IMG/VR virus record: IMGVR_UViG_3300045988_079139
Coordinates: 4,378 to 68,377 of that record
Length of the DNA: 64,000 bases
Strand: one strand, 5' to 3'
Source: a virus
The notes below the pieces were generated by a model. The model made no database searches. It was not told the DNA's origin and saw only the letters and a program-made list of their open reading frames with translations. Of the stretch, positions 1 through 50,166 are shown one piece after another. Both the position numbers and the translations under genes were made by a program. How positions within the stretch are numbered: the first letter of the stretch is position 1; every line of letters begins with the position of its first letter.

Positions 1-72
1 AAAACCAGAAAGCCAGCCTGATAACTGGATGAAAAATATTCACTAACTAAAATTTTAAGGAGGATACTAACC

Positions 73-1011
73 ATGAAATTTGGTGTACGCGAAATTTGCG
101 ATGTCGTTCTGAAGGCGAAGGCAGCTCAAAAAGTAGGTAATAAATTATTCTACAAGAATGAGCCTGTAATTTATTTTGATACTCTAAAGAGCTCTAGCAT
201 GGAAGGTGCAGCAACTACTGTTTATGCACAGGGTGGTCGTGGTAACTCTCGTTTGATTGCTTGGGAAGGCGAGCGTACTATTACTTTCACCATGGAAGAT
301 GCTCTAATCTCTCCCGCTGGCTTCATGATCCTGTCTGGTGCAGGTTTGATTGAGGCTACTGAAGAGAAGTCCATTAAGGTTCATACTACTGAGCAGACTG
401 ACAAGGTTACTGTTGAGAGTGGCGATGTTAAGTACGGTGCAGAAGGATATGCTGATGCTATTACTTCTGTAACTATTGAGCTTGATGAAGTTCCTTATGA
501 TGACGTTGATGGCGATTACATTTATGTAATGCTATTGGAGAATGGCGAAGTTGTTACTGAGCCTTACATTCCTGAGTCCGTTGACCAGGAGAAGAAGACT
601 ATTACTCTAAAGACTTCTGATGATTTGGCTAAGTTCTATGATAACTGCGTTGTTTTGGTTGACTACTACACTGAGAAGAAGGCTGGCGCTCAGCAGATCG
701 AAATTACTCCCGATAAGTTCGGTGGTAACTACTATCTAGAGGCTTCTACTCTATTCCGTGATACAAATGGTGTTGACATGCCTGCAGAGTTCATTATTCC
801 TAACTGCAAGATTCAGTCTAACTTTACTTTCACCATGGCATCTTCTGGCGATCCATCTACTTTCACTTTCACTATGGACGCTTTCCCTGACTACACTCGT
901 TTCGACAAGACCAAGAAGGTTCTGGCCGCAATCCAGATTGTTGACGTAGCAGGTTCTAGCGACTTGGTTCGTGACATGACTGCTTCTAAGCAGCACAACA
1001 AGTTTGATTAA
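73..1011 (+). CDS. Major tail (tube) protein candidate (312 aa); abundant structural protein, TAG-free
   Basis: Uninterrupted ORF with an AGGAGG RBS at 56-62 and a TAATAA stop followed by a hairpin plus U-tract terminator. It lies directly upstream of the chaperone-like genes and the tape measure, which is the canonical MTP-G-TMP order. Codon usage (AAG, CAG, TTC, TAC, CTG) differs sharply from the neighbouring genes, as expected for a very highly expressed gene. It contains no TAG. Confidence 0.55.
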   Translation: MKFGVREICDVVLKAKAAQKVGNKLFYKNEPVIYFDTLKSSSMEGAATTVYAQGGRGNSRLIAWEGERTITFTMEDALISPAGFMILSGAGLIEATEEKSIKVHTTEQTDKVTVESGDVKYGAEGYADAITSVTIELDEVPYDDVDGDYIYVMLLENGEVVTEPYIPESVDQEKKTITLKTSDDLAKFYDNCVVLVDYYTEKKAGAQQIEITPDKFGGNYYLEASTLFRDTNGVDMPAEFIIPNCKIQSNFTFTMASSGDPSTFTFTMDAFPDYTRFDKTKKVLAAIQIVDVAGSSDLVRDMTASKQHNKFD

Positions 1012-1027
1012 TAAAACTTAATATTTT

Positions 1028-1068
1028 GGGGAGAGACTAATATAGTCTCTCCCCCTTTTTTTTATTTT
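1028..1068 (+). terminator. Rho-independent terminator after the major tail protein gene
   Basis: ggggagagacta-ata-tagtctctcccc hairpin followed by a T9 run. Confidence 0.8.
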
Positions 1069-1088
1069 GAGAGAAAGGAGATTCGTAA

Positions 1089-2297
1089 ATGATTGAAAAA
1101 AGTTATATTCAATACTTAGATTATAAACCGTCAGTTGCATATTCTTTTTTCGCGTAGCGTCAGAATGCTTTATTGTTGGCAAATACTAAATCTGCTTTTG
1201 ATAGCAATGAAGCGCGTCTAAATCAGATTATTAGTAATGCTCAATAGGGATTAAATAAATTAACTAATAATATTGTGACTGAAGAAAATTTAGCAAACGC
1301 AATCTCTAAAGGAATGGAAGCTAGTGCTGCTTTATCTGGAGACTTAGAAAAAATGGCAGGGTCAATAAGTGGATATTTTAGTGAAGCAAATTCAAAAGCA
1401 GCTCAATTAAGAAATTTGTATGAAACCGGATACACAGATTTTGAAAGCATTGTTAGTTCAGTTTTGAAAAGTGGTAGAGTTACAATCAATCATGGTGAAT
1501 TGACACAAATTTTAAGCAATCTTCATCCAGATTAGATTGAAACCGCTTTTAGAGATGTAGCTAACCCGCTTGGTTGGATAGGTGAATTAAGTGGTTTGCC
1601 TCTTTTATCTAATATCGCAGATTAGTTATTAGAAACTTCGTTTAAGGGTATGCCTGGAGTTACTGTGGAAATTGTAAATACTGGTGCTCTTTACACAGAC
1701 AAAGGTTCTCGTTTAACCACTGATAATTTATTAATATTTAGACAAGGAAATCAAGTTTTATATTAGTTAAATCTTTCTAATAAATTAAATACTGTTTATC
1801 AAGATAAATCTAAAAATACTAAACGTGCAATTAAATTAAGAACTACAACAGTAAATTCTTTTTTATCTGGCCATGAAGACTGGGCTGAGCACGTTTATAA
1901 TATTATTAGTTATCACTGGGACACTTCTAAAGATATGCGAGTAGATTATTTAACTGGAGAGGGTAATATCGCAAGACAGAGTTTGGGGTTATAGATTTTA
2001 TATGACCATATTTATGGCACTAAAGAAAACTTTTTAGTTGGTGATGATATATTTAAGGATGAAGTTCAGTTGATAGCTTATGGTACAAAAATTATTGCCA
2101 GCAATAGTGTATTAAGACACGCTTTATTTACTAAAGCCATGAATGATAAGAAAAAATTTACAATGATTACCATTGATAGAAAGTCTTGGTTTCATAATGA
2201 AGATGAATAGGGAAAGACCTATATTCAAAATGAATATGATGCTCAAAGAAGAATTGCTGCCTTTGGTTTGATTTATAAACAAACTTTACAAATTTGA
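1089..2297 (+). CDS. Hypothetical tail-module protein (402 aa), read through 7 in-frame TAG codons
   Basis: ATG at 1089 is preceded by gagagaaaggag. The frame stays open to TGA at 2295-2297 except for TAG codons at 1155, 1245, 1533, 1623, 1764, 1992 and 2208. The ORF track shows only the 1275-1535 fragment. Confidence 0.55.
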
Positions 2298-2322
2298 CAA
2301 ATCAGAAAATTTCTGGTATAAT
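2294..2322 (+). promoter_or_regulatory. Consensus sigma-A-type promoter (TTGACA-17 nt-TATAAT)
   Basis: TTGACA at 2294-2299, a 17-nt spacer and TATAAT at 2317-2322, placed 36 nt upstream of the ATG at 2358. Confidence 0.7.
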
Positions 2323-2357
2323 ATAAATATAAAATGAGATAAAGGAGGAATTTAGCT

Positions 2358-2897
2358 ATGGCTAAAGTACCATTTTCAAAATTGCAGGCTAAAGTTGATA
2401 GTAAAGTAACTCAAAATTGCTATTGTAATTTAGCTGGCGAAGAAGTACATTATGAGGTAAAGCATTACTTACCTTTTGTAGAAAAACTCGACCTAGTTTC
2501 TCGTATCATCAATAATTCTATTGATGATAATGGTTTTTACAATCCAATGCGAGTAAAAATGTATATGGTTCTTGAAGTAACTTTCGCATATACTAATCTA
2601 AGTTTCACTGAAAAAATGAAGGAAGACCCTTTTAAACTATACGACATTTTAGTAAGTACTAGTATTTTTACCGATATTGTAAATGCTATCTGTGAAAAAG
2701 ATTGGACTGAAATTCAAGCAGATGTCTGGTCTACAATTGATAATATTTACAATTATAGAAATTCCGTGATGGGAATTCTAGAAACTATTACTGCCGATTA
2801 TAGTAATTTAAATCTTGATGCCAGTGAAATCCAAAAGAAATTGGCTGATCCAGATAATATGGATTTTTTGCGAGATGTTTTAAGTAAATTGGGCTAA
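2358..2897 (+). CDS. Putative tail assembly chaperone (179 aa), independently transcribed and TAG-free
   Basis: AAAGGAGG RBS, its own consensus promoter upstream and a strong terminator downstream. The chaperone call rests only on its position between the major tail protein and the tape measure. Confidence 0.45.
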   Translation: MAKVPFSKLQAKVDSKVTQNCYCNLAGEEVHYEVKHYLPFVEKLDLVSRIINNSIDDNGFYNPMRVKMYMVLEVTFAYTNLSFTEKMKEDPFKLYDILVSTSIFTDIVNAICEKDWTEIQADVWSTIDNIYNYRNSVMGILETITADYSNLNLDASEIQKKLADPDNMDFLRDVLSKLG

Positions 2898-2943
2898 TTA
2901 AATTAGTTTATTTATTAAGACTTTTACATTTTAATAGGAATGG

Positions 2944-2990
2944 ACGGCGGCTGGATAAAAACATTCCAGCCGCCGTTATTTTTATTTTTG
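2944..2990 (+). terminator. Rho-independent terminator
   Basis: acggcggctgg / ccagccgccgt 11-bp stem followed by ttatttttatttttg. Confidence 0.8.
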
Positions 2991-3026
2991 CAAAAATAAA
3001 AAATTGGAGAGAAAGGAGTATTTTAA

Positions 3027-6000
3027 GTGGCAAAACAATTAAATGTTAATTTAGCATTTAATGCTGATACTAGCAAGGTAAAAGCGTAGTTGTAGGAATT
3101 ATAGAATCATTTAAATAATTTAACTAACACAACAGCGGCTTAGTTGCCTATTACTAAAGAGGTCCAAGAGGCTCAATAGGCAACTATTCATTTGAAAACT
3201 GCCTTGCAGCAAGCAGTAAATGTAAATACTGGTAAATTTGACCTATCTAAGTTCAATTAGTCCATTAAGACTTCTGGAACTTCTCTAGAGCAAATTCGAA
3301 ATCGTTTGGTTCAAATTGGGCCTAGTGGATAGTAGGCTTTTGCATCGTTGGCACAATCAATTGCTTCAGCAGAAATCCCTGCTCGTAGAACCAGTGCTTT
3401 ATTAAGTGAGCTAGGAACCACTTTAAAAAATACTGTTAAATGGCAATTTTCTTCTAGTATGTTGCATGGTTTTATGGGCGCAGTTCAAAGTGCTTATGGA
3501 TATGCTCAAGATTTAAATAAATCTTTAAATGATATTCGAATTGTAACTGGATTGAGTGCTGATGAGATGGATAAATTTGCTATTAAGGCTAATAAGGCAG
3601 CAAAAGCTTTGAGCGCATCTACATTAGAATATACTAATGCAGCATTAATTTATTATCAACAGGGTTTAGATTCTAAGGCTGTTGAGGAACGAACAAATGT
3701 AACAATTAAAATGGCAAATGTTACTGGAGAAGTCGCTTCTGACGTATCTAATTATATGACAGCAGTCTGGAATAATTTTGCCAAAGGCGGCGAAACATTA
3801 GAGTATTATGCTGATGTTATGACTGCTTTAGGTGCTGCTACAGCTTCAAGTACAGATGAAATTGCAGCTGGATTGGAGAAATTCGCTTCTGTCGCAGATA
3901 CAGTAGGATTAAGCTATGAATATGCAACTGCTGCATTGGCAACTGTTACTGCCACAACTCGTCAAAGTGCTGATGTTGTAGGTACTGCTTTTAAAACCTT
4001 ATTTGCACGTATCCAAGATTTGGAGCTAGGAGAAACTTTAGATGATGGTACCACTCTTGGCAGTTATTCATAGGCTTTGCAAAAAGTTGGTATTAATATT
4101 AAAGATACTTCCGGTCAATTGAAAGATATGGATATTATCCTAGAAGAAATGGCTGCTAAATGGGAAACTCTTGGAAAAGCCGAGAGAACTGCCTTAGCGC
4201 AATCTGTTGCTGGTGTTCGTCAATATACTCAATTGATTGCTTTAATGGATAATTGGGATTTTATGGAATCCAACCTTGGAGTTGCGAATTCTGCTGAAGG
4301 TACTCTTCAAGAACAAGCAGATATTTATGCTGAAAGCTGGGAAGGTGCTCGAGATAGAGTAAAAGCCGCCGCTGAAGCAATTTATAGTGATTTGCTAAAT
4401 GATGATTTCTTTATCGATTTAACAAACGGTTTAGAAAAAGTATTGACATTATTTGACCATTTCTTAGATGCTATTGGAGGAGCTAAAGGTTTAATCTTTG
4501 GTTTATCTAGTATTTTATTAAATACTTTTAGCGCTTAGGCGGCTAAAGGTTTAGAAAATATGGTTTATAATTTAAAGAGCTTTGTAGGTTTAACGCAAAA
4601 AGAAGCCATTGCAACAAAAGCAGAAGCAAATCGATTAATGGCAGAAAAAGTGCCATCTGCAGGCCCTAGTGTTTTAAACACTTTCACTTCTGATGCTAGC
4701 ACAACAGGAATGTAGACATAGTTTGAATTGACGTCTCAAGTTGCTATGTTGAAAGAAAAGATGACAGAGCATCAACAAATGGAAGCACAAGCTATTTTAA
4801 GTTAGAACAAAGCTTATGCTGATTAGTTAGTGGTGTTGGGACAAAAGGCTGATGCTTTAAAAAGTGAGAAAGAAAGCGCCAGATCAAATTTATTAGATGA
4901 CGCTGCTTTTGAGTTGGGTACCGTTCGTGCTCAAGAAGCTTTGTCTCAAATTGATGCAGATATTATGAATGGCGAAAGCATTGTAGCTGAAATTGAATAG
5001 GTTGAACAGGCTTTTAAAAAAGGAACTGTAACTCTTGAAGATTATAAAGCTAAAATGGGAGAGCTAGGAAAGAAAGCTAAATCTTAGGGCTTAGAAGAAA
5101 CTGCAAGTATTATTGCGAAAGTTTCTGGCCGTACTGCAAGTGGAAAACCTCAAGATTTAGATATGGCAGGAATGGCTCGTACTGCCGCAACGAAAGATAC
5201 TCGCAAGCGAGCTAGAAAAGCTTTAACAGATAAGGGAGCAAAAAGTCCTGCTGTTGATGATAAAACAATTGATAAATATATCACAAAAACAAAAGAAGCT
5301 GCAAAAGCAGATAAAAAATTTGCTGATGGTAAAAAAGAGTTAGAGAGAAATACTGCTGAATCATCTAAAGCAATTAAGAATTTAACTAATACAACACAGC
5401 AAGTTTCACAAACCATTGTTAAGACTGCTTAGGCTACAATGTCTTTAGCTTATGGTATTAATGCTTTAAGTCAGCTAGGTGATATTTGGTCTGATGATAC
5501 GCTTTCTGGCGGACAAAAGTTCTTACAAACATTAATGTCTCTTGGTACAGCTATTCCAATGTTAATGAATGGTTTAACAGGAATGAATGCAGTATTAGGA
5601 GTTACTAGTGTTTTAGAACAAAAAGCAGCTATTGCATCTCAACTATATCTTGCGGCTCATAGTAAAAAGTTAGCTGTATTAACAGCAGAGCAACAAGCAG
5701 AATTAGCTGCAAATATGTCTAAAGCAACGGGCTTAACTTTAGATTAGGCAAAAGTTCAAGTAAGCAATGCAGTCGCTGCAGCTAAATTACAAGAGGCGGC
5801 CGCCTCTGGAGCGCTAACTGCTGCATCTACCGCAGAACAAATTGCTGGGCTAGCAGGAATTTCTATGGACTAGGCTGAAATCATTTCTAAAAAGCTTGCT
5901 GCAGGTGCAACAATAGAAGAGGCTATGGCTGAGGCTGGATTGACAGCTACTAAAACTGGCGGTATTGCTGCATCAGTAATGCAAATTTATACCAAAGGTT

Positions 6001-9000
6001 TAGAAAGTGGTGCACGATGGGCTAATGTAGTGGCAATGATTGCAGAGCAAACTGCGATGTCTCCACTGCTGATTATGACATTGCTTTTAGTTGCTGCAAT
6101 GGCAGCATTAGCTGCAGTAATAGCAATTGTAGTTACAGCTGTCAACGCAATTGTAAGCGCGTATAATGCTGATTCAATAGCAGCTGAAAAAGCAGAAGCA
6201 GCAGCAAAAGAATTGGCAAAAGCATATAATGAAGCAAAAGCCAGTTATGAAGAAATGGTTGCTGCGATGGAAGAATATCAAAGCGCACGAGATGCTTTGG
6301 ATTCTTTAACAAAAGGAACTGAAGAATATTCTCAAGCTTTAAAAGAAGCTAACCGTCAAGCTTTAGATTTAATTAATACATATGATAAATATTTAACTTC
6401 TGATGATTATAAATGGGATAATGGTCAATTGGTTATTGATGATGCTGCTTTAGAAAGAGCTAAGCAAATGGCAAGTCAAGATCTTGATACTGCATATGCA
6501 GCAAGCTCTATGGGCGCAGCCAATGCCAAAGAAATGCGAGCCGTATCTGATCAAACTAATTTAAAACGTAGTTATTACGATGGTAATATTGGTACCGCAG
6601 CACTTCAAGCAATGGGAAGTTCACTTGCTTCAACATTAATCCCAGGACTTGGCACTCTATTGGCCCCCGTACTAGCGACTGCTTCGCTTGCAACGTATGC
6701 AGCAAAGCAAGGTGAGGAATAGGCTTATGGCAAGGGCGTTGACGCTGCCATGAAGTTATATCGAGAAGGCAATAAGAATATTTTTGATTCTTAGGAAAAT
6801 TTATCAACCGCTTTAAGCGAAGTCGGTATTACCAACACTGATTTAATTACAGCATTGTGGGAAAATAAAGACGCTTTGCAAGAGCTGGGTAGCAAATTTG
6901 ATGCGGCTGAAATGGCTGGAAGAGCTGCTGCTCAAGAAAATGCTCGTGCCTTTATCGAAAATTCTTCTTATAGCAATTCAAAATATGCTGATGAAATGAC
7001 TCATATGGTTGGCAATAAGTATTATGAGCGTCAACAAGAAGTGGAAGCTCAGATGTCTGAATTGGTAAAAACCAAGGGTGGATTAAAAGCAGCTGCTAAT
7101 TCTTATTTCGCTAATAGTGGCATTGCTGATCAGTCAGGATTTAAAGTTGAAAAATACGATAAGAAAAATGGCGTTGTAAAATATAGCTACATTGGTGAAG
7201 ATGGAAAACGAGAAGAAAAAGAGGTAACAGCAGAATTTATTGCATAGATGGAAGCTGCTACCAAAGTGCAATCTGAATTAACAGAAAGTTGTAAAATTGT
7301 TAGCGATTCTTTTAGTGCTTTAGATGGACAGCTTGGTTCAACTAATGAAGCGTTAAATGAAGGCATGAAAGCCTTTTTAACAACTGGTGATATTAGTAAT
7401 TTAACTAAAGATTAGTATGATGAAATCGCCAATTTATCTGATGAAGATTTATTAAAATATTTAAATAATATCGGAATTAATGAAGATACTGTAAAGTCTT
7501 TTGGATATGATAATATGTCAGATTTTACAGATAGTATGAATGTTGATGGAGTAGGAGAGACTTGGGACAAGTACCAAAATATTACTGCCCATCAAGGAAC
7601 AGAAGATTTAACATTAAATCAAGCAGAGAATATTAGTAATGCTCTGGAGGGTATTGCAGAGTTCTTCGGTGAAGAAGTCGGACATGAGATGCTAGATTTA
7701 TCTGCGTTAATGGCTGATTCTTTAGATGAAGCCGCTCAAGACGATTTCTGGGAGCAACTGGGTAATATCTCTGATTATACCGATGCTGATCAATGGGATG
7801 CATTCTTAGAAGCCATGAAAGATTCTGAAGATATGACAGATGAATAGATTCAAGCTTTAGAAGAATATGTTGATACAGCTAAATTGGCAGCAAAAGCAAC
7901 TAAAGATTTAGATTTTGATGCTATGGCTGAAAGCGTAAAGAGTTTACGCGATATTATGCAAAGTATTTCTGATGGAAATAGAGAGATTACTGATGAAGAA
8001 TTTGCTGCTCTTGAAGCTCAAGGAATTGACACTTCTAAATTTGCAAAAACCATTGATGGTTATCGTTATCTTGGTGATAGTGCAGATTTAGTTGCAGATA
8101 TCTCTGAAGGTATTACTAAGCAATTTAAAGAAGCAGAAATGAATTTCTCTAATATCGCTGCAACTGCTGCTCAAGCTAGTTAGAATTTAATTGATGCTGA
8201 AGCTGCACTTGATGCTGCTCGTATAGCTGGCGATCAAGCAAGAGCATCTGCAGAAGCTGGCGCTACTAATCAATTAACTAATACTGAGAAATTAAGTGTT
8301 ATCATGTCACAAATTGTAAACAATGTTGTATCAAAGATTAAGGCAGCATGGGAATGGATTTGTGGAATCATGATGGATATTTATGATTTCTTTGCTAATA
8401 TTTTTAATAAAATTGGATAGGGTATTACTGATATTTGGAATGGCTTCTTAGAAATTATTGAAAATATTATTAATGGCGTAGTTGGAAAAGTTGTCGAACT
8501 ATTAGAAGAAATTCCTGGTGTTGATATTGATTGGGAAGATATTTCATTTGAAAAAGCTAATTTTGAAGGTGTAAAAACAACAGAAGAAATTGAAGCGGAA
8601 GAAAATGCTAGAAAAGCAGAAGAAGATTTAATAGCTTCTACTCAAGCATTGGCTGATGCTATACCTGATATGGTAGCTAGTATTGAATCTAGTGCTGATT
8701 ATCTTTCTGAAGCAGAACTTGAAGCTGGTCGTGTTGAAGCAGAATAGAATTATAATACTGCGCAATCTCAATATGATGCAGCTGTTGCAACATATGGTAA
8801 AGATTCTACTCAAGCTAAATATTATGAACAATTAGTGGCATATTATGAAGCTCAAATGGACGCTTATGCTAAGGCTTTGGATTCAAAAGCTTGGGGCGAG
8901 GTAATTGCAGAGGGCATTGATACCAAAGAGATGGAAGCTTATATTGATCTTCTGGAGCAAGCGCATCCAGAAATGCGTAAATTATATGAAACTACAGAAG

Positions 9001-12000
9001 ATTATGAAAATGCATTGCTGCAAGTCGCTACTGCCAATAAAAAAATGGAAAAGGGTGTTAAATCCTTAGCTTCTAACTGGGACAAATGGAATGATATTAT
9101 GGGTGATAGCGAAGCTTCAGCTTCAGATATTGCTACAATTTTACCAGAGGTTAATGATGCCGTACAAGATGTTTTAAATCTTGATACTAGTGAGTTCGCC
9201 ATGTTACCTCCTGATTTTGCTCGAAAGCATTGGGATTTAATTCAAGACGTTGTTAAGGGCGTAGAAGGATCTGTAGATAAATTGCGTAATGTAGCAGGCC
9301 AAGAAATTTTAATGCAAATTGATGGCGTGCTAGATGCCGATGGAAATCTTGACGCTCAATTTATGGCCTTACATGAAAAAATTGCTCAATACGATCAATC
9401 TCAATTTACTGTTGGAGTTGCTATTGATCCACAAGCAAATGCAGATTTTATTGCAGCTTGTAATGATATTATTCAAAAAGCTGGTATGACTGCAGAATAG
9501 GCTTAGGCTTATTTCGCATCCATGGGTTACGATATCAAGTTAAAGCCTGTTAAGCAAAAGATTACTGAAACACAATGGAATCACATTTATAAAAATGTTT
9601 ATGACGCCAAAGGAAATCTGTCTGGTAGAGTAATTTAGAAAGCTTGGCCTTCTACATTTACTGGTGAAGTTGATGCTTTGGCCATTGAGACTATTACTCC
9701 AAATGGCTCTTATGGTGGTGGTATTGGAGTAGAGACAACTCCTCCAAAATCTTCTACATCTGCCGCTGATTCATCAGGCGGTAATAATGATGAGCCAGAA
9801 GCAGCAGAAGAAGAAGAAGTTTCTAAAAAGTCTGATATTGTCGATAGATATCATACAGTTAATCGACAATTGGAGGATATGACTAAGGCGATGGAAAAAG
9901 CTTCCAAAGCCGCAGATAAATTATGGAGTCGTAAAAGATTACAGTATTTAAAAGATTAGAATGAATTATTAGATCAAGAAATAGGGTTACTGGAAACAAA
10001 GAAGCAAGAAGCAGAAGACTATCTTCGAGATGAAGATATTCCTAATTTAACTTAGGCTATGGCAGATGCCGGCTTTAATGCTACTTTTGATGATAATGGT
10101 GAAATTACAAATTATAGAAGCGTTATGGACACTTTGGCAGATTAGCTAATTGCCGCGCAAAATCAGCGTAATACGCTAGCTACAAAAGACGATCAAGATG
10201 CTTATACTAAAACTGTTATTGAACCTTTAGAGAAAAAGATTGAAGAATTGCAGGCTGCAATTGAAATGTATGAAGCAACATTAGATACTATTGAAGAAGT
10301 AGATACTGAAATTCAAGATCGAGTAGACCAGAAACTTGCTAATAATTATGAAGCTTGGAGCTTAGAGCTTGAATTAGACATTGCAATCAATGAAAGAGAT
10401 TTGGAATTATTAGATTATTACTTATCTAAAATTGAAGACGATGTTTATTCTATGGCTGAAGCCGCAGCTTATATGATTGGTTCTTTAGAAGGACTAGCTT
10501 CTGGAGAATTCGGTGGTCAATTAGGCATATACTTAAACAGCTTATCAACTTATAGTTCAGCCCTAGATGATTTAAATACAAAATTAGCTGCTGGAGAAAT
10601 TACTGAAGCAGCCTATGAAGAAGGTCTAGAAGAAATTCGTTCTGGTTTAATGGATAATTTATCTTCATTAAATGAATTGGACGATGCCATGTTAAATTAT
10701 TATGGTGATACTCTATCTATGGTTACAGAAGAAATTGATAAATATACTGAAAAAATGGAACATCAATCTTCTGTTCTGGAACACTATAGTAATATGATGG
10801 AAATCTTAGGTAAGTCTCAAGATTATGAATCAATGGGTACTATTTTGCAAGGTCAAGCTGATGTATTAGCAGACCAAGTTGATGTTGCAAAAGCTGAATA
10901 TGATTTATATGCACAAGAAGCTGCTAATAAGCGTAAATTATATGAAGATGCTATTGCGGCTGGTGACCAGGCAGCAGCAGAAGTCTACAAGAAAGAATGG
11001 GAAGCTGCTGATGAAGCCGCCATGGAAGCTCAATCTAATATGCTAGATAAGACTGAAGAGTGGGCAGAATCCATGAAGTCAGTTGTTGAAAATAAGTTGG
11101 CAGGTTTAGCGCAATCCTTGGAAAGTGCTTTAACGGGTGGAACTTCATTCGATGAATTAACCACTTCTTTGGAGCGTGCGGCAAGCTTACAAGAAGAATA
11201 TCTAACTACTACAAATTAGATTTATGAAACTAATAAATTAATGCGTACTGCACAGCAAGAAATTGATAAAACTACAAATACTGTTGCAAAATAGCGTTTG
11301 AAAGATTTTATTAAAGAAACTGACCAGTTGCAAGATAAGTCTAAATTAAGTCAATATGAGTTAGAAATTCAACAAGCTAAATATGATTTGCTTCTGGCTG
11401 AAATCGCTTTAGAAGAGGCTTAGAGTGCTAAATCTACTGTCCGTTTGCAGCGTGACGCTGAAGGTAATTTCGGTTATGTATATACTGCAGACCAAGACCA
11501 ATTAGCTAATGCTCAGCAAGAATTAGAGAATGCTCAAAATAGTCTATATAATATTGGTTTAGAGGGCGCCAATGAGTACACTGAAAAATACTCTCAAACC
11601 ATGCAAGAAATGTATGATACATTAACCTCAATCCAAGAGGCTTGGTTGAATGGTGAAATTGCTACTCAAGAAGAATATGATAGACAAATGTTGGCGGCTC
11701 AAGAATATTATTATCAGTAGTTAGAAGATTATTCTAGCTTATATAGTGTTGCCATTTCCACAGACAGTCGCGTTGTAAAAGATGCTTGGAGCACTGGTTT
11801 TAACTCAATGATGAGTAAAACCAACGAATGGAAAGACAAAGTCAATCAATATAGCGCCGAAGCTCGTGAGACTTTAGTCAATTGGTATGCTAAGGTTGAT
11901 GAAATCGCTAATAAGACTGGTTTAGATAATATTGCTTCTAAGGTAAAGGCCGTTACTGACGAATCTAAGGCTTTGAAAGATGCTGTTATTGGCGAAGATG

Positions 12001-12836
12001 GTAAGGGCGGAGTTGTTCAAGCTCTTAAAGATGAATTGACTGCAGTAAGCAATTTAACTGGTGGTTATGCATCTTTGCGTGGCACCATTTAGGGATTAAT
12101 TGCAGACTATGAAGCATTAATGGATACTGTTAATAATGCTTAGAATCAGCAAACTTCAATTAATCAAACAACTGAAAATGGTGACGGAGGCAGTAATGGT
12201 GGAGACACTGGAGGTAACACAGGCGGTGATACCGGAGGTAATAATACTGGAGGTAACACTGGTGGAAATACCGGAGGTAATAATACTGGAGGTAACGTTA
12301 CTCCAACATTGGCCGAGGGTCAAGATGTTACTGTTAAAGCTACTGCTACTCACTTCTCACGAGATGGCGGTAATGGAACTCGTATGAGATCCTTCGTACC
12401 TGGCTCTACTTATTCAGTAATGTAGATTCAGGGTGAAGAAGTTCTAATTGGACGCAATGGCACTGCCACAGGATGGGTAAGAAAAACTGACCTAGTTGGT
12501 TTTAATACTGGTGGTTACACTGGAGAATGGGGTCCATATGGTAAATTAGCCATTTTGGATGAAAAGGAATTGGTGTTAAATAAGAATGATACAGCTAATT
12601 TCTTAGCTAGTATGGAATTATTAGAACATATTCTAGAGATAATTGATTTGTAGGCCGCAAGCGCTCAGCTTGGTGGTATATTAAGTAGTCCTGGATATGC
12701 AGATACACCAACTGAAACAATTGAACAAAATGTTCATATTGAAGCATCATTCCCCGCAGTTCAAGATAGAAATGAGATTGAAGAAGCATTTAATACTCTT
12801 ATTAATAGGGCTTCTCAATATGCTAATCGAAAATAA
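3027..12836 (+). CDS. Tail tape measure protein, 3,269 aa, read through about 41 in-frame TAG codons
   Basis: GTG start 7 nt after AAAGGAG. A single frame runs open from 3027 to TAA at 12834-12836 and is broken only by TAG. Every gap between ORF-track fragments (3348, 4077, 5163, 5439, 5925, 6855, 7515, 7884, 8835, 9678, 10248, 11445, 11808...) was checked codon by codon. The protein is Ala/Gln-rich coiled coil. It has classic TMP N-terminal-domain sequence (AQSIASAEIP...GLSYEYATAALATVTATTRQSADVVGTAFKTLFARIQD) and a hydrophobic segment near 8330-8410, as TMPs typically do. Confidence 0.8.
12185..12300 (+). repeat. Intragenic tandem repeat of about 15-18 nt encoding GG(D/N)TGGNTGG... (Gly/Thr/Asn-rich) within the TMP C-terminal region
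   Basis: Repeated ggaggtaa(c/t)a(c/a)tgg(t/c)gg(a/t)(g/a)a(t/c)acc units. This explains the spurious ORFs on both strands at 12136-12387. Confidence 0.7.
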
Positions 12837-12843
12837 AATTTTA

Positions 12844-12876
12844 GGGTAGGTTATATTTTATAACCTACCCTTTTTC
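12844..12876 (+). terminator. Rho-independent terminator after the TMP
   Basis: gggtaggttatattttataacctaccc hairpin followed by ttttt. Confidence 0.8.
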
Positions 12877-12897: not shown

Positions 12898-12926
12898 TTG
12901 ACTTTTCTAAAATTTTATAGTATAAT
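12898..12926 (+). promoter_or_regulatory. Consensus sigma-A-type promoter (TTGACT-17 nt-TATAAT)
   Basis: TTGACT at 12898-12903, a 17-nt spacer and TATAAT at 12921-12926, followed by ggagagaaaggagat and the ATG at 12957. Confidence 0.7.
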
Positions 12927-12956: not shown

Positions 12957-15900
12957 ATGGCATTTGATGTTGAGCAAATTTTTGGTGCGATGGATATTAT
13001 TCTCGCACAGCGTTTGCAAGATGTTTCATTCGATAAAACTCTAATTTGTACCATTGTTGATGATAGTGATAAGAAAAATGGTCATTATATTGTTACTGAT
13101 GGTACGATCAAATTTGATGCATACGTAAGTGATGCAACATATAAAAATGATGACCAAGTTCGCGTATCTGTTTTAGGTGGTGATTTTAGTGATAAAAAGT
13201 TTATCACTGGAAAATATGTGGCAGATGAAAATACTGGCCCAATCACATATGTTTCACCGCTAGAGGGAATTATTCCTATCACCGGAAATTTATTTTCCAA
13301 TGGTTCTAATGTATTTTCCATTAAAGCCAATGGCACTCCTCGTGATAAAGTATTATGGAATATTAATTTAACAGATAATGCTGAGTTTAGAGATTTGCAA
13401 TCTAATGGTATTTACAATACTATTACTTTAAAAGCAGATTTTAAAACACTATTATCTCATTACAATTTAAAGTCTGGTAATTTTGGATTACGATTAGACT
13501 TATTTATTCAACCTTCTTTAAATAGTCCCCGTCGCATTCGCAAATGGGTGTCTTTAGATAGTAGTGAGTTCTTTGGAAATCCTTATGCCTTTTCTATTTA
13601 TTCTACTCAAGGTAAGAAAATTAATATTGCATCTACTGGAGTTATTGCTGAAATGGCCTTATGGCTATATCAAGGAATGGATGGAGATGGTAATGATTCT
13701 TATTTCTTAAATAAAAAAGGCGAACAATTAAATCCAAATAAAACAGTTAACGGGCGACTGGTGCAAATGGATGATGATATTTTAGTAAAAAATATCGAAA
13801 TTGGATTCGGTAGTGATATTACTTCGATTACTGATAATACACTAGAATTATATACTTATAGTAGTCCAACTTATTTATATGATAATCACACCCAAGATAC
13901 GAATGAAAAAGAATTGGAATTATTGTGGTATAATAAGACTGAGGATAATGAGTATATCGGTTTTAGTGATGGTATTTATGATTTAGATTATGATGAAATT
14001 GATTATTTAAAATTAGCTCATCAAGACAGTAGATTGGTTGCTTAGGTTGGCCGAGAAGGCATTCCTACCGATAAGCCGGGTTTGACTCTTGCGGCAGATA
14101 TGCAAGAAGCAAAACCGATTATGATTTCAACAAGAGAATATTTGACAAAGGATTTAAATTCTGTTATTCGTTCTTTTAGTAATTAGGTCCTTGGTGTCAA
14201 TTCATTTGTTACTCTCTTGGATGGCTTATTAAACACTACAAATGGTGCTATTATTACTGCATACAATAGCGCAATGGCGGCAACTGATAGTATGATTGCT
14301 AGCTATGAAGGCGTTCTTCGTTTTGCTTATGACAAACAAAAGGATGTACAAGATAAGACCTCTTGGGATGCTGCTTGGGAGACTAATTATTATAACAATT
14401 TTAAAACGGCTTTTAATACTGTTTTAAATAAAATTGATATAGTGTTAAAAGATATTGAAAAAGAAACTCGTGCCGACGCTTCTTTTTCTGGATATCGTGG
14501 TATCTATGATACTTATGATACTCGCATTAGACGAGAAATGAAAGTAATTACTGATAGATTAAAATAGATTGATACTTTAATGAGTGATAATCATTCTATA
14601 TTAATTGCTTATAAAAATAATGCTTATCAATTTAATGAATATACAAGAAAAGATTTTTCTGATTACGCTAATAAATATTGTATTTATTGGTATAGATATG
14701 AGCGAGGTTATAAATTAACTTATGATAGCACTGAAGGTGCAAATAATGATGAATATAATTTCGGTCAATTTGTAACAGACAACTGGAGACGTCTAACTCC
14801 CGTCGGAGATTCTATTTTAAAGAACCTCGGATTACCTCGAAATGAGGCTGACACAAAGCTTGTAGATGGTAAAAAATATTATCCTCCTAAGGCAATTGGA
14901 GAGAAACTAGTTCGCTATATGAATAATAAAACTCAAGAAGAAAAATATATGGTTGTATTATTTTATAATCATGAAATGTATAAGAGTAATATTATTACAT
15001 TTACAAATAGTGAAGATGTTCCAGATGAATATTTAGTGGATCAAAGAGATGCATTAAGAATTGAGCATGATGTGCAATCTTTTGAGCATTATCAATCTTA
15101 TGATGTTACTAATATGTTAATCAATGTTGCAGATGGTGGAAAGGTTCGTCAATTAAAATGTTTTTATGAGGGTTTATTCTCTGGAGATGAAGCTTTAATC
15201 GATGCAGGTTTATATTGGTATGTTCCTAATACTGCAACAATGCTTACCTTTGATAAAGATGACTTAATTAAAGAAGGTTTTGCAACTGATGCTGATTTGC
15301 CAGAAGGAGAAAAATCTGATAAGAGTAGACCTGGATTTACTTATTTCTATAAAAAAGTTGGAAAGAGTGATACTCCTTTAACTGGATATAATCCAGATGG
15401 TACCACCTACACTTACGACACTTGTAAAAATGAAGATAGATATTTCTTCTATAAAATTAAACCTTATTTTGAACAAGCCGCAAGTAAAAATACTATTGAA
15501 GTATGGGCTTATTTACCAAACGTAACTGAGCCAATTAAGGGCGAAATTTCATTCACATTTAGTACTTTTGGTACTAATGGAACTAGATATACTTTGGCGA
15601 TTACTCCAGCGACTTCTCAAATTGCTGTAATTGGTGCGCCGTCTTATACAGAAATTACAACTGTAACAGCTGATAATTATGAACCTAATGTATATTATAT
15701 CCCAGATGGCGATGATTATAAACTAGCCACAGGAGAGTATTCTAGTGCCCTATAGTATTATACGGTTGCCGCAAACCATTCATTACCATTAGAAGTTTCT
15801 TTAAGAGACGCATCTAATAATAAAATTCCTATGGTAGATGGAGCAATAAGTGAAAATGCCGATGAAGCTTATGCATTTAAGACCTCTTGGATGGGTCCTA

Positions 15901-18900
15901 CTACATATATTGCTCATTCTAAAGATAGTAATGGTGACGGTAGTATTGATAGTATTACTATTACTCGTGATACTCGACATGATGAAAATCAATACTATTA
16001 TGGAATTTTAAAAGCAAGTGTTCAATTTAAATATGACGATGAAGCAGAATAGGCAAAACAGGAAGCTCAAAATAATCCTGCGAATGTTGATAAATATCAA
16101 AAATATAGAGTATTAGATTTAAATGCTTTATATGCAGTTCCATATTCTTCTTCTGGTCAATATTATATTTCTGGTCCTACATCTATTGTTTATAATAATC
16201 AAGGTGTAGTTAGCCATATGAGTGAAGATCCATTCTGTTTATATCAAGTTAATGATAAAGAAAATAAACCAGTTGAAAATCAGCGTTGGGTATTGGAATA
16301 CTATAGTGAGACTGGTGAATGGATTGATGAAACTCACGACGATTGGTTAACCATGTTAAATTATATGCCAGTTTTAAACGCAGAAAATGGATTGACTGCG
16401 GCTCCCATGTATATGCAAGGTTTGCCTTATTATCCAGTTGCCATTTGCACTGTTGATGGTAATATTTTATGGGTACAACCAATTATTATTACGCAAAATC
16501 GTTATGCTTCTTCCACTCTAAATGATTGGAACGGAAGCTTGACAATTGATGAAAAAAATGGTACAATATTATCAACCATGGTGGGTGCAGGTAAGAAAGA
16601 AACTGATAATTCTTTCTCTGGCTTGCTAATGGGTGATATAGGTGCTGGTGCTAACTTTGATACAGATAATTATAATGGATTAGGTTTATATGGTTTTCAT
16701 TATGGTGCTCAAAGTTTAGCCTTAACAATTGATGGTAAAGCATTTTTTGGTAAAGCTGGTCGAGGTCGAATTTATATTGATGGCGATAGCGGTAGTATTG
16801 CTAGCGCCTCCTATGAAGAGGTTCGTAGAAAAGGTGAATAGCTAACTTCCGCAGGTATGTTTATTGACTTGGATGATGGTTTTATTCATATGCTTGGTTC
16901 AACCATTATTGATAAAACTTATTCACCTGATTATCCTGATGGAAAAACTTCTCAGGCAGAAGTATTGCTTTCAACAGGCATGAAACATGGTGAAAAAGAT
17001 GCTTATTTTAAAATCAGAAGTAAAGATTAGCCAAATCCAGACCACTATTTAATCTATGTTGATACTGACAAGTATTATTTATAGACAGATGATTATACTT
17101 CTTGGACATATACAAAGACAGATAATTCCGGAGAATTAGACTTTAGTGGTAAGGGTTTAAATTTAGACTTAAAGAATGGTAAATTAGATGCTTATAATTT
17201 CCAACTAAGTTCTAAAAATGTATATATTGATTCTACAGATTCATCAGAAGGCTTCTTTATTATTAAAGATAATGCTGGTGTTAATTTATTTTTTGCTGGA
17301 AGAAATGATTATTATTTAAAATCTAGCGATTTTAAACCTATGAGTGCAACTGATATGGGTAAAGGAATGCGTTTGCATTTGATGAGTACAACTGATGATC
17401 CAAGTGGAATTGAAGCTTATAATTTTAATTTAAGAGCTGGTACCGTTGGCGTGTCTGGTAATCAAGATCACGCAATTGTATTAAGTGACAGTGGTAATCC
17501 ATATTTTATGGTTAATACTAGTTTATATGACACAGATGGTAACGTTACAGGGAAAAAAACTTTGGTACTTATCAGCAAAACAGAATAGTCACTTCAATCT
17601 AGTGATTATGCCGCGCCAAGTGGAGATGCTAGGGGTTAGGGTATCCGTATCAGCCTGTCAGACAAAGAATTAAAAGCCTATAGCGGTTTTTAGTTAAAAG
17701 CATACGGGTCTGCTAATAATTTTGTTGAAATCAATTCTGATTCTAATAATCCTACACCAATTCATGTTGATGGCGATGGTACTATTACTTATACAGATGC
17801 AGATGGTAAGCAGCAAATCGTAAATAAAGAATTTAAAGTTTTTTGGGATGGTAGTATTAGTGCAGTTGGTGGAACTTTTAAAGGAACTATTAATGCAACT
17901 GATGGTACTTTCTCAGGCACCATTAAAGCAAATGGTACAATTACAGGTGGTAAAATAAAAGGTGCAAGTATTTATGCAGCAAACCTTTATGCAGGTGGTT
18001 CTGACGGAAATAGTGAAACTCCGGAAGACTATAATATTAGAGCTTCTGGATCTGGAGTAATGATTAAAGGTGCTACTATCGAGGGAGTCAATGATGGAAG
18101 TCAAACCTTTGGATTAACCTCTGATGGATACTTAACAGCTAGTGAGGCCACAATGACAGATTTAATTGTTAGTACAAGTTTTACCACAGAAGACACTTGT
18201 ACAGTTGATATTGATGGTTTTGTCGGCATTGGCATTGAACATGATGAAGAATATGACTTAAAAATTGCTGGTGATGCTAATTTTTAGGGCTATTTATATA
18301 TGGGTGCGAATGGTTCTGAATATATCTACGCCGGTGGTACAACCCATAAAACAGATGGTATAATTATTAATGGTAATGACGTTTGTTTGTATTCTGACCA
18401 AGTGTGGATTGGAAATGATAATAAAAATACTTATGTAAATGGATACATGCAAGTTAATGCTTCTCTTGGTATTGGAGAAGAGCCTGATACTACTGGTGAT
18501 TATAATTTAAAAGTCAATGGTAGTTCTATGATTAGTGGAGACGTTTTATACACTGGAGATATTTATTGCACCCAAAAGGATAACGACCATAAAGGTGTTT
18601 CTGGAACTTACAAGGTTGAAACGGGTTGGTGGACTAGTAAACAATTAACTTTTGATAAGGGTATTTTAGTTAAAATAGGTGGTAAAAAAGACGACGGATC
18701 TGATGACACTGATGTGGGAACCTCCGCTCCAGATATTAAGGGTAATGCGAATAAATTCTTACAAGTAAATGCCAGTGCCACTGGTATGCAATGGACTGAA
18801 CTAGGTGATTTAGCTTTTAAAGATTCTATCACCATTAGTAGTTCAACTTTTAAATTAGGTAGTGGTAGTGCATATAATGTTACTCCAACGCTATCCGGAA

Positions 18901-19142
18901 ATACTGCTACCTTTTCTGTGACAATCCCCGGATAGTCTTATAGTGGTGGTACTGTCGCTGGACACTGGGTAACAGTTTATGCTAATAAAGCTTTGCCCGC
19001 AGGTTACAGTATTGGAGGATACGAAGATAAGGGATCTGACTGGGTTAAGGTTGGATCTGTATGGGCTGATGGTGGTAGTACTAGTGGAGGTACTACTAGT
19101 GACAGAACAGGTGTATTTACTGTTTCTTTAAAAGCAGAATAA
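12957..19142 (+). CDS. Giant distal-tail/baseplate structural protein (2,061 aa, Dit/Tal-like position), read through about 17 TAG codons
   Basis: One frame is open from 12957 to TAA at 19140-19142. The ORF-track pieces 12957, 14217, 14580, 15831, 16218, 17340, 18060 and 18300 are all in this frame, and the gaps between them contain only TAG. The gene lies immediately downstream of the TMP. Confidence 0.6.
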
Positions 19143-25126: not shown

Positions 25127-25471
25127 ATGAAATATATAAAATAGTTTAGATATTATGGAGAAGATCATCAAGATAATTTTCCTAAATATACAAATTATTA
25201 TGGTATGTTGAAAAGCGGAAATATTTTACAAGGTCTCGGCGTTGTTTCTCAGCTTGGTATTCAGGCTCGACCTGAAACAAAATTTTATTTAAATGGTAGT
25301 GATTCTCCCATTGTAATTGGTAAAACTGGTATTTTTGAACTTGATTTGGATGGTCGAGGAATGATTACTTCTATCCGATTTGACCCAAAATCATTAGACG
25401 ATTATAATGCACCTAATAATACAGATAGATTATTAGTTGATGTGGTTTATGAGGGGGTTGACGTCGGATGA
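25127..25471 (+). CDS. Hypothetical protein (114 aa) with TAG at codon 6
   Basis: The ATG at 25127 has a GGGGG RBS, whereas the ORF-track start at 25205 has none. The TGA stop overlaps the next start in an ATGA arrangement. Confidence 0.5.
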
Positions 25472-26511
25472 GTTTTTATGGTAGTATATATTATGAATTA
25501 GTTGATACTTTTTACAAAGTATTGGTTCATAATAAAGGAAAAACGAACATTGGATTTCCTGTTGCGGCCGATGTTAAAGACGAATAGACTTTGATGGCTA
25601 TTGGTCGAAAAGGCGTTTTAGATATTGATAGTGGTAATAGATGGATTAAGTTTACTGCTAGCCCAGATACTACAAAATATACTATATGGCATGAGAAACC
25701 AGATGAAGAAAATGTTTAGTCCATTGCTAGTTTTACAAGATTAGAATCTGCTCCAGAAGGAGTGACACCGACTAATTTATATGCTGGTGATGTTATTTAG
25801 GTCTCAAGCTTTGATTATGACAAAGCAGGCCACACTGCGAAATCAGAAATTAGATATTACAAACTACCGACATCTACGGTTGAAGCTGATATTGCTTCTT
25901 TAATGTCCGCAGTTGGCGATATTAAAGATATTTATCCAAGTAAAACTGAAGAAGATGTGGAAAACGACGAAGATGTAAAAAATATCGGTAAAGCTATTGG
26001 CGATATTGAATCTTATCGTCTGCAGATGGGAGAGGGACATGAGACTTATACCTTATGTAATGGTCTATATGATTTAAATCAAATCGCAAACACAATTGGT
26101 TCTGTATCAGAAGATATTTATGACGGCTTTGTTTGGGATAGAACATTTACAGACTCTTTTGGTAATTTAAGAACTGTATTTCCTACAGAGTATAGTAAGA
26201 AGAGTCTATGTGATGCAATTGGTAATGTTGAGTTATTGGTTGATGCGAATGGAGACCCTTTAAATATCGTTCAAGCAATAAATAAGACAGCAGGCGATAA
26301 TAGTGCCCTTACTGGTAATTTAACTGTTACTAACATCGCTGTGGAAAAGCATGAAACCGATATAGGTCTTTTAAATGATGCAGTTACTGCATAGCAAGAA
26401 AAAATCACTGAGCTTGAAACAAAAATAGCTGAATTAGAAGGTTATAAAGCTTTAATAGAGGATTATGGTACTCGTATTGAAGCTATAGAAGCACAATTAC
26501 AAACTGAATAA
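25468..26511 (+). CDS. Structural protein with a C-terminal coiled coil (347 aa, 4 TAG)
   Basis: ATGA overlap with the upstream gene and a gaggggg RBS. The 25903 fragment is co-frame, ending at TAA 26509-26511. Confidence 0.55.
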
Positions 26512-37200: not shown

Positions 37201-37983
37201 ACTGATAACAAGTATTTTACCTTCGGTTATAATTATAATTATGTTGATCCAGTAGATCCTTCTAAGAATGCTGTCGGAAGTACAATTAGAATTTCTTCAG
37301 AATATCAAAATGGTGATTTAAGAGGTAAGATTACTGTGCCAGCTGTTGATGATTAGGGTAACCCAATTGTTTCTATTATGGGCTTTGATACTGATGCAGC
37401 AAAAGCAATTACTCATTTATTCTTTATGCCAGATAATAATATTTTGCAATTTGAATCTCAAGCCTTCGAAGGAAATAACTTTGATAGTAAATTGCAATAT
37501 ATTGACTTCCCAAATCTTACTAAGTTACGCTCAATTAACAGATATGCCTTCCGTTATCTGGATAATTTACAATTATCTGAAATTCCTGCTCCTGTTGTCT
37601 ATGTTGGACAAGAAGCATTTAATGGAAGCTTTGAGTCTTTGTCTGGAATTAAAGAATTCTATATTAATGGTAGTGTAACAAAAATGGACCCTGGAGCTTT
37701 CTCTAACTGTGATGTTCCAATTGAAACTCTATATGTAGGAAAGCCTGGAGACCCAACACAGCTGGATATTAGTTCTTGGAATTCTTCTCAAGCTCCTTAT
37801 TTCCAGCAAAATCAATATTTCCGTCCTAAGACTGTATATATTTATTGTGATGGAGATCGCATTGATGCGTTCCATGCGGCAATGTCTAAGTATGCAGAGG
37901 GTCAATCTATTTTCCAAGTTGCTTGGGAGGGCGAAGAAGAATTAGGACAATATTTTGTTAAAGATGCTAATGATTTTTCTTGA
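31294..37983 (+). CDS. Giant fibre/receptor-binding protein (2,229 aa if both TAGs are read through) with a LamG-like lectin domain and a C-terminal BspA-type leucine-rich-repeat domain
   Basis: RBS ggaaagaaaggag. The 31294, 32179 and 37378 fragments are co-frame, and only the TAGs at 32008 and 37354 separate them. The supposed starts at 32179 (GTG) and 37378 have no RBS. A LamG-type motif, DIYNIRIYDQALTSKQI, lies near 33290. The 37378-37983 segment has a BspA-like LRR pattern. An alternative reading splits it into three genes if these TAGs terminate. Confidence 0.5.
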
Positions 37984-41711: not shown

Positions 41712-41724
41712 GAGGTGAAAATTA

Positions 41725-44532: not shown

Positions 44533-44621
44533 GGGCAGTTTTAATTAAAAGTCCTAATTTAATTTTTAATTCTTATAGAAGGTAAAACTTTCTATAATTT
44601 AATCAAAGGAGAGATTCTATT

Positions 44622-44849: not shown

Positions 44850-44863
44850 TAAGAACCATATTA

Positions 44864-47663: not shown

Positions 47664-47674
47664 GGAGGACGCTT

Positions 47675-50146: not shown

Positions 50147-50166
50147 GAGAAAGGAGCTGAAATTAA

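Follow-up and report, generated by a model that had tools for sequence, protein, structure and literature searches.

The length of a phage tail is set by the length of its tape measure protein (TMP), as established for gpH of phage lambda and by deletion studies of other TMPs. In Lactococcus phage phiL47 the non-contractile tail measures 480 nm (PMC3888941), in other phages of the Lactococcus 949 group 470-610 nm (PMC3888941, PMC5371800), and in the siphovirus SPbeta 320 nm (PMC8270828). The TMP of the Thermus phages P23-45/P74-26 consists of 5,002 amino acids (aa), and their tails are between about 800 nm and almost 1 micrometre long (bioRxiv 10.1101/2022.12.01.518664; PMC10034513). TMP genes interrupted by TAG codons have been described in the human-gut phage phAss-1 and in two related phages, BK046881_ctckW2 and BK025033_ct6IQ4 (proposed Phassvirus), with products of 3,149, 3,150 and 3,209 aa. 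phAss-1 encodes three tRNA-Sup(CTA) genes typed as glutamine (Gln), and TAG is read as Gln; suppressor tRNA genes are missing from some recoded phages, and the wider "monophyletic group" defined in the same study takes in Enterococcus phage EF1 (PMC10607447). Here we describe a tail region of an uncultured phage, IMG/VR record IMGVR_UViG_3300045988_079139, of which positions 4,378 to 68,377 were analyzed. This stretch of 64,000 nucleotides, hereafter the window, is numbered from its first letter, and at 3027-12836 on the plus strand it contains a TMP gene of 3,269 sense codons, 41 of which are TAG.

The region 3027-12836 is a single gene for a phage tail TMP with a product of about 350 kDa. 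The reading as a whole, in which one TMP gene is translated with genetic code 15 (TAG as Gln) and defines a tail of about 460-480 nm when calibrated on relatives, is held with high confidence. It does not alter current understanding, as long TMPs are already described for gut phages with recoded TAG and tails have been measured for cultured relatives whose TMPs are equally long. What remains of most interest is a conserved hairpin element that precedes the TMP gene, together with the occurrence of one TMP family in the genetic codes 11, 15 and 4.

The TMP gene

The gene extends from a GTG codon to a TAA codon and comprises 9,810 nt in frame. The terminal TAA is the only one, and internal TAA or TGA codons do not occur, whereas each of the remaining five frames across the same positions contains 97-378 TAA plus TGA codons. 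From the base composition, the probability of 3,269 consecutive codons free of TAA and TGA is about 1e-79. The GTG start lies immediately 3' of a stop codon in the same frame and has the Shine-Dalgarno sequence AAAGGAG 8 nt upstream. The start (MAKQLNV...) and the end (...ASQYANRK) of the deduced protein coincide with the termini of its homologues.

The N-terminal region contains the TP901-type core domain (aa 150-493, window 3474-4505, plus strand). TIGR01760 tape_meas_TP901 matches aa 150-493 over profile positions 5-337 of 349 with 113.5 bits (E 1e-32; family cut-off 28.8 bits), and PF10145 PhageMin_Tail matches aa 189-396 over the full profile with 95.3 bits (E 5.9e-27; cut-off 33.2 bits). 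Both families had been proposed in the initial annotation for a check of the N-terminal 400 aa, and both scores lie above the cut-offs. Two PHROG tape-measure families match with E values of 1e-54 and 1e-51. By these profile matches the protein is assigned to the TP901-type tape measure family, and its gene occupies the place expected for such a gene, behind the tube and chaperone-like genes and ahead of further tail genes.

Predicted tail length

The TMP of phiL47 has 3,275 aa, which with a tail of 480 nm corresponds to 0.147 nm per residue; the TMP of SPbeta, YomI, has 2,285 aa, which with a tail of 320 nm corresponds to 0.140 nm per residue. Because phiL47 and SPbeta, whose tubes are homologous to the tube encoded here, give 0.140-0.147 nm per residue, a tail of 458-479 nm is predicted for 3,269 aa. 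This value from two cultured relatives falls within the 0.45-0.5 micrometre that the initial annotation had estimated. Given a rise of about 4 nm and hexameric rings, such a tail can reasonably be expected to consist of about 115-120 tube rings with about 700 subunits. During assembly, the lumen of the tube would be occupied by a small number of TMP molecules in a mostly extended form, and polymerization of the tube would stop at the end of the TMP. The uncultured phage, probably of about 200 kb, would fall into a lineage of siphoviruses that have half-micrometre tails and infect Gram-positive bacteria, a placement that gives a testable particle morphology.

A tail clearly shorter than 0.45 micrometre would result if a sizeable part of the TMP were cargo or an effector rather than a ruler. 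SPbeta YomI is said in the literature on CwlP to carry peptidoglycan-hydrolase (lytic) domains, and some records label it a transglycosylase. The giant TMP of P23-45 has an enzymatic part, an RNA polymerase (bioRxiv 10.1101/2022.12.01.518664). In the TMP of the window, folded modules are modelled at aa 2060-2230 and as an SH3-like barrel near the C-terminus, but they amount to less than 10% of the protein, and across all 3,269 aa no enzymatic Pfam domain was found at E<0.01. The measured 480-nm tail of phiL47, with a TMP of equal length, indicates that almost the entire TMP contributes to tail length in this lineage (PMC3888941), and the length is tightly conserved over very divergent sequences, as it would be for a ruler. 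A large cargo portion is improbable, and a ruler function of most of the protein is the better explanation.

Even less probable is a myovirus, in which the TMP would set the length of a contractile tail. The window opens at the tube gene, which leaves room for a sheath gene just upstream. On contigs with an identical tube protein, however, the 10 kb upstream of the tube gene contain homologues of YonD_N, YonB, YomX_C (weak), YomW and YomV, in this order, and none of these genes is assigned to a sheath family. Furthermore, SPbeta and phiL47, which possess homologous modules, are non-contractile by electron microscopy (PMC8270828, PMC3888941).

Homologues and the unity of the gene

A protein search with the TMP yielded 7,370 matches. 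The best 120 all contain PF10145 and range from 2,602 to 3,728 aa (median 3,181); their C-terminal consensus EQNVHIEASFPGVxDRNEIEEAFNxLINxASQYANRK is also found in the TMP of the window. A search of IMG/VR anchored on the conserved C-terminus identified 80 loci, 78 of them with the complete region. When TAG is read as a sense codon, 76 of the 78 loci encode the TMP in a single frame, with lengths of 2,570-3,386 aa and a median of about 3,100 aa. Among these 76, 28 carry no TAG at all and use the standard code, for example with 3,265, 3,229 and 3,386 aa.

The two remaining loci, L185 (IMG/VR 3300021431_000157, positions 1574-10330) and L191 (3300031998_000017, positions 2141-10336), appeared to contain split TMP genes. 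They have 25 and 19 in-frame TGA codons, respectively, and no TAG. Trp stands opposite these TGA positions in 29-35% of the aligned cells, compared with a background of 0.9%. The interpretation as split genes was rejected in favor of recoding of TGA to Trp (code 4). As judged from the alignments, one TMP family spans the genetic codes 11, 15 and 4. If so, it would provide a natural series for studying how an essential gene of 3,000 codons crosses a change of code.

The view of the initial annotation that the 9.8-kb frame is one gene of 3,269 aa holds up: no TAA or TGA interrupts it, the homologues on related contigs are unsplit and conserved in length, and the two seeming exceptions are TGA-recoded. 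Its description of the TMP as exceptionally long does not. The median of the clade is about 3,100-3,180 aa with a maximum of 3,728 aa, the 949 group has 3,275-3,280 aa and P23-45 has 5,002 aa; a TMP of 3,269 aa is ordinary for its lineage and was anticipated by the literature. That the length stays at about 2,600-3,700 aa in sequences with as little as 25-40% identity, and under three genetic codes, would be a clear example from nature of how the ruler principle works.

No nucleotide-level relatives were found by megablast among deposited phages. A 203,724-bp scaffold (ERZ28633363) shares the identical tube protein and has 91.6% DNA identity to the window from the tube gene to the chaperone gene, but its TMP of 3,172 aa (vs 3,269) shows only patches of 68-81% identity to that of the window. 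From such comparisons the TMP is seen as a mosaic and a hot spot of recombination, the total length of which still stays within a narrow band.

The mosaic structure could suggest that the frame consists of two or more genes, a TMP of normal length and another tail protein, that were fused recently or joined through faulty assembly. In agreement with a fusion, the middle third aligns with few homologues (about 12 of 120 for aa 1701-1900), and Gly-rich linkers divide the protein into blocks. Yet the same length, the same termini and one frame recur across hundreds of independent assemblies. The public contig ENA ERZ27229684 k119_127491 (53.9 kb) is 100% identical to the window over positions 1-11011. 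In the cultured phages phiL47 and AM4 the TMP is likewise encoded by one gene, with 3,275 and 3,280 aa, respectively, and both relatives that seemed split, L185 and L191, proved to be TGA-recoded. A joining of separate genes is highly unlikely, and the frame is regarded as one gene.

On the contig k119_127491 the annotated TMP begins at an internal ATG codon and is 149 residues short.

TAG as a glutamine codon

In alignments with 17 standard-code homologues, Gln stands opposite TAG positions of the window in 101 of 391 aligned cells (26%), compared with a background of 6.3%; Lys and Glu are the next most frequent residues. Opposite positions 21, 23, 26, 103, 504, 2158 and 2799 of the TMP, Gln occurs more often than any other residue. 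These alignments assign TAG in this phage to Gln, as in genetic code 15. Reading through TAG raises the coverage of the window by open reading frames (ORFs) from 55.6 to 80.6 kb, a gain contributed by long ORFs on the plus strand. The 34 tabulated ORFs contain 120 in-frame TAG codons, and all of them terminate with TAA (27) or TGA (7).

That TAG is still a stop codon and the region either decayed, non-coding DNA or a series of about 42 short ORFs would be in line with the window's lack of a suppressor tRNA and with the 17 "hypothetical proteins" into which a standard-code gene caller cuts the homologous region of phAss-1, but it is virtually ruled out by the frame of 3,269 codons without TAA or TGA, by the end-to-end colinearity of the translation with TAG-free standard-code homologues, by the preferential position of TAG opposite Gln and by the 25 kb of ORF coverage gained on read-through.

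Contigs of gut phages of this clade must be translated with code 15, and those of some relatives with code 4; otherwise a structural protein of 350 kDa is turned into dozens of hypothetical fragments.

The TMP had been called the most TAG-dense gene, with about 41 TAGs. It does have the highest number (41), but not the highest density: it contains 12.5 TAG per 1,000 codons, compared with 17.4 in the gene at 1089-2297. TAG makes up 21% of the Gln codons in the TMP gene, 32% in gene 1089-2297, 40% in gene 25468-26511 and 36% in gene 47660-50146.

TAG accounts for 8 of the 16 Gln codons within the first 110 codons of the TMP gene (Fisher p 0.008). An N-terminal TAG "gate" as a feature of the family was considered and rejected; the pooled p value is 0.19, and the same direction is seen in 22 of 36 distinct recoded relatives.

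Several points weigh against the reading of recoding, tail length and expression given here. No suppressor tRNA, indeed no tRNA at all, was found in the 64-kb window or in 60 related tail-module loci. Because of this, the decoding agent is placed outside the window, by analogy with relatives, in a phage genome that probably comprises about 200 kb, as estimated from the 203,724-bp scaffold. The yield of full-length TMP equals the decoding efficiency to the power of 41, so near-complete reassignment of TAG is needed. Promoter-like matches in the region occur at chance level (48 vs 47 expected). The figure of about 700 tube subunits depends on an assumed hexamer and an assumed rise of about 4 nm for a tube of the YomU type. 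The tail length is an extrapolation for a phage known here from its genes alone, and the Gly-rich linkers and the SH3-like and beta-hairpin modules may not belong to the ruler, in which case the tail would be some tens of nm shorter.

Structure of the TMP

The TMP is rich in Ala, Glu, Lys and Leu, and Pro amounts to 0-2% in most bins of 250 aa. The N-terminus (aa 1-500), which includes the TP901 core, is conserved. It is followed by a variable region (aa 500-1000) rich in Ala, Lys and Glu and by a strongly hydrophobic stretch at aa 1008-1048 (6048-6170; Kyte-Doolittle mean over 19 residues up to 2.88) with room for two membrane-spanning helices. The block that comprises this stretch, aa 1001-1100, can be aligned in about 78 of 120 homologues. 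The following region (aa 1050-2250) is variable and acidic, and its segment aa 1701-1900 is the one that few homologues share. A weaker hydrophobic stretch, likewise found by Kyte-Doolittle analysis, is located at aa 1204-1222 (6636-6692).

For aa 2060-2230 (9204-9716) a helical bundle, a long two-stranded beta hairpin and a Gly/Ser-rich linker are predicted in this order. The AlphaFold model was calculated with the 86%-identical segment of homologue P0003 and has a predicted local distance difference test (pLDDT) score of 79, with strands of about 25 residues each. A fold search with aa 2060-2262 gave no significant match; the best E value was 0.17, among assorted proteins with long beta hairpins that included pore and ring formers. 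Outside the N-terminus, aa 2300-3000 (9924-12026) are the best conserved part, for which 97-105 of 120 homologues align, and identity among homologues is highest at aa 2701-2900.

A low-complexity linker rich in Gly, Asn and Thr (aa 3045-3092; 12159-12302) is encoded by a short tandem DNA repeat with a period of 39 nt (12207-12296). It leads to a small beta-barrel at aa 3095-3158 (12309-12500), which from AlphaFold and weak fold matches appears to be an exchangeable SH3-like module. The model was obtained with the 95%-identical segment of P0024 and reaches pLDDT values of 79-92 there. A fold search with the SH3-like and C-terminal part gave no significant match (best E 0.02; SH3-like ribosomal eL21, SH3 domains and YrvJ); the match of YrvJ to the SH3-like module had a probability of 0.98 and an E value of 0.06. 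Other homologues have a different sequence in this slot. The cell-wall-binding repeat CW_7 (PF08230) is on record for P0005, P0041, P0052 and others, and in P0005 the CW_7-like sequence sits directly ahead of the TGGYTG motif. That motif opens the conserved C-terminal block, aa 3159-3269 (12501-12833; TGGYTGxWG ... EQNVHIEASFP ... ASQYANRK), which has 19 invariant columns in 27 diverse homologues. The confidence of AlphaFold is low over this block, and a search of PDB sequences with the C-terminal 264 aa gave only low-complexity Gly-rich matches.

The modelled SH3-like module, together with the CW_7 repeats of other homologues, would fit a Gram-positive cell wall. Once ejected during infection, the TMP probably uses its hydrophobic segments and the SH3-like module in the cell wall and membrane of a Gram-positive host (Bacillota).

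The tail module

The genes around the TMP gene, all on the plus strand, resemble those of SPbeta. The tube (major tail) protein of 312 aa is encoded at 73-1011 and is of the YomU type: the exact protein is present on four public contigs, where it carries the precomputed Pfam assignment PF27173 YomU_Tube, and phrog_2729 matches with an E value of 6e-54. In the Pfam set searched with the window proteins, which lacks recent SPbeta families such as PF27173, the tube protein had no match. Tube or virion proteins with 30-47% identity to it occur in Enterococcus phages of the EF1/VRE9 type, in phAss-1, in the Lactococcus 949 group and in Bacillus phage vB_BanS_Nate.

The next gene (1089-2297; 402 aa, 7 TAG), situated between the tube and chaperone genes, is the one with the highest TAG density in the window. 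It has no Pfam or PHROG match, and an unrelated gene fills the equivalent slot on the related contig L003. The gene at 2358-2897 (179 aa, TAG-free) is YomO-like and a candidate for the tail assembly chaperone; phrog_30570 matches with an E value of 3e-16, and Enterococcus VRE9_3 also has a phrog_30570 gene ahead of its TMP gene. Contig L196, a close relative, has a counterpart of 183 aa in the same slot that carries PF27287 YomO, and the YomO-like gene of the window is 69% identical to a gene of L003 that carries YomO (weak). A frameshift partner of the G/GT type was not identified.

Downstream of the TMP gene, 12957-19142 encodes a tail protein of 2,061 aa (13 TAG), which is 57% identical to the product of the post-TMP gene of L003. 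phrog_9413 "tail protein and host specificity" matches weakly, and the homologue in L002 carries Peptidase_S74 (weak). The SPbeta-type set of virion genes (YonD, YonB, YomW, YomV, YomU tube, YomO and YomI-like TMP) is found on the contigs with the identical tube protein and on L003. By gene content and order, the tail genes of the window are classed as an SPbeta-type siphovirus tail module.

Expression signals

The tube gene contains no TAG, and its codon use is the most strongly biased of all genes in the window, with a G+C content at third codon positions (GC3) of 0.41 as opposed to about 0.2 elsewhere and an effective number of codons of 33; AAG outnumbers AAA by 21 to 3 and CAG outnumbers CAA by 8 to 1. 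These values support its description in the initial annotation as codon-optimized and TAG-free. Just 3' of the tube gene, at 1028-1054, a terminator-like hairpin with a 12-bp stem is followed by a T-run (-21.8 kcal/mol, z -5.4). A similar structure with a 13-bp stem (12843-12871; -18.5 kcal/mol, z -5.8) lies directly 3' of the TMP stop codon. Two putative promoters of the sigma-70 type were located: TTGACA-17-TATAAT with a TG extension upstream of the chaperone-like gene (2294-2322; 12 of 12 positions match, an assignment based on position only) and TTGACT-17-TATAAT ahead of the next tail gene (12898-12926; 11 of 12).

Immediately upstream of the TMP gene, at 2943-2990, a strong hairpin (13 bp, 2943-2977) is followed by a U-run (-27 kcal/mol, z -6.4). 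The 135 nt before each TMP start were compared in L003 and L026-L104. In all 43 distinct relatives a hairpin with a T-run was found 34-68 nt before the TMP start, with folding energies from -18 to -29 kcal/mol and differing stem sequences. This evidence comes from individual folds; RNAalifold gave no structure, as MAFFT could not align the differing stems. Conserved motifs, ATAGGAGTAAT and TTTTATTTTGCAAAATAAAAA, flank the hairpin. The conserved block, at 2925-3026 in the window, consists, in order, of ATAGGA(G/A)TAAT, the hairpin, the T-run with TTTTATTTTGCAAAATAAAAA, and the GGAGAGAAAGGAG leader. The SPbeta record likewise annotates stem-loops before and after yomI. From its position and predicted fold, the hairpin probably serves as a terminator or attenuator that lowers expression of the TMP relative to the tube protein.

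Far fewer copies of the TMP than of the tube protein would be required, and two features appear to throttle expression of the TMP. The first throttle would be the positionally conserved putative terminator hairpin between the upstream promoter and chaperone gene and the TMP start. The second would be the 41 TAG codons, which could be passed only once a suppressor tRNA(CUA), encoded outside the window, is active. The tube gene in contrast has no TAG, a strong codon bias and its own putative terminator at the 3' end. We consider it possible, though rather doubtful, that the TMP gene of the clade is under a conserved two-layer throttle made up of the attenuator, with its apparently co-varying stems, and, in recoded members, dozens of TAG codons. 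If true, the throttle would set both the late timing and a stoichiometry of about 1 TMP per 100-250 tube subunits.

Other genes of the window and the host

The gene at 31294-37983 (plus strand; 2,229 aa) encodes a region of BspA-type leucine-rich repeats (LRR_5, E 3e-9) and has a weak match to CotH. It contains only 2 TAG, and its codon use is richer in CAG than that of its neighbors. As judged from the repeats, the product is probably an adhesin-like component of the tail or of a fibre. At 41719-54189 (plus strand), four consecutive large genes (937, 908, 828 and 1,340 aa) encode fibre-like proteins rich in Gly, Thr and Asn. Judged by eye only, an N-terminal motif (WLPLNG / WYPLDGN ... LamG-like) recurs in two of them, at 41719-44532 and 47660-50146, and the group may encode multiple receptor-binding proteins.

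The minus-strand block at 56755-63998 carries genes of nucleotide metabolism and replication, which encode an NrdD-like anaerobic ribonucleotide reductase, its small activating subunit, a dUTPase, a RuvC-like resolvase and a fragment of a DNA polymerase. It is mostly TAG-free and has a higher GC3 of 0.27-0.38, a composition that would fit early genes readable in the standard code.

Whole phage contigs of the clade (L006-L025, up to 175 kb) have been binned into metagenome-assembled genomes (MAGs) of many taxa, mostly Bacillota; the labels include Lachnospiraceae, Oscillospiraceae, Mollicutes/Tenericutes, Bacteroidales, Gastranaerophilaceae and others. This scatter likely reflects mis-binning, which contaminates the bins concerned. 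Since the matches in GTDB genomes are whole phage contigs spread over MAGs from many phyla, they allow no host call.

Comparison with known systems

phAss-1 is, like the phage described here, a human-gut phage in which TAG means Gln and the TMP is encoded in a single frame, with 110 TAG in phAss-1; the tube proteins are 42% identical. The two differ in that the TMPs are just 25.8% identical and there is no match at the nucleotide level. Genomes of the phAss-1 group measure 133-138 kb, that of the window's closest relative about 200 kb, and TAG accounts for a much higher share of the Gln codons in phAss-1 than the 21% found in the TMP gene of the window. Enterococcus phages of the EF1/VRE9 type (about 140 kb) are related through the tube protein, and EF1 also belongs to the wider group defined around phAss-1.

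The Lactococcus 949 group (genus Audreyjarvisvirus) comes closest in TMP length, with 3,275 aa in phiL47 (orf166) and 3,280 aa in AM4. It shares the N-terminal TP901-type domain (about 24% identity) and a tube protein that is 30-35% identical, and its members have large genomes (125-133 kb) and Bacillota hosts. At the level of tblastn, nothing beyond the N-terminal domain is detectable between its TMPs and that of the window. The 949 group differs in its use of the standard code, in its cultured lactococcal hosts from dairy and plants, and in an integrase-like gene directly before the TMP gene.

SPbeta YomI (CwlP) resembles the TMP of the window in its N-terminal domain (23% identity), in the SPbeta-type head and tail genes that accompany it and in the stem-loops that flank its gene; in addition, the first 39 residues of the C-terminal block (aa 3159-3269) are 56% identical to YomI 2143-2181. 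YomI is about 1,000 residues shorter and is encoded in the standard code by a temperate prophage of B. subtilis. The lytic domains attributed to it were not detected in the TMP of the window, which has the SH3-like module instead.

With P23-45/P74-26 the phage shares a giant TMP and, by prediction, an extremely long siphovirus tail defined by it. The Thermus phages are of an unrelated lineage, and their TMP, encoded in the standard code, is about 1,700 residues longer and has a virion RNA polymerase at its N-terminus; with the 5,002 aa of P23-45 on record, the TMP of the window is no length record. The founders of the family, the TP901-1-type TMPs of about 900-1,000 aa (TIGR01760/PF10145), have the same core domain and occupy the same slot between the chaperone and the distal tail genes. 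Compared with them, the TMP described here is more than three times as long and has acquired additional modules and TAG codons.

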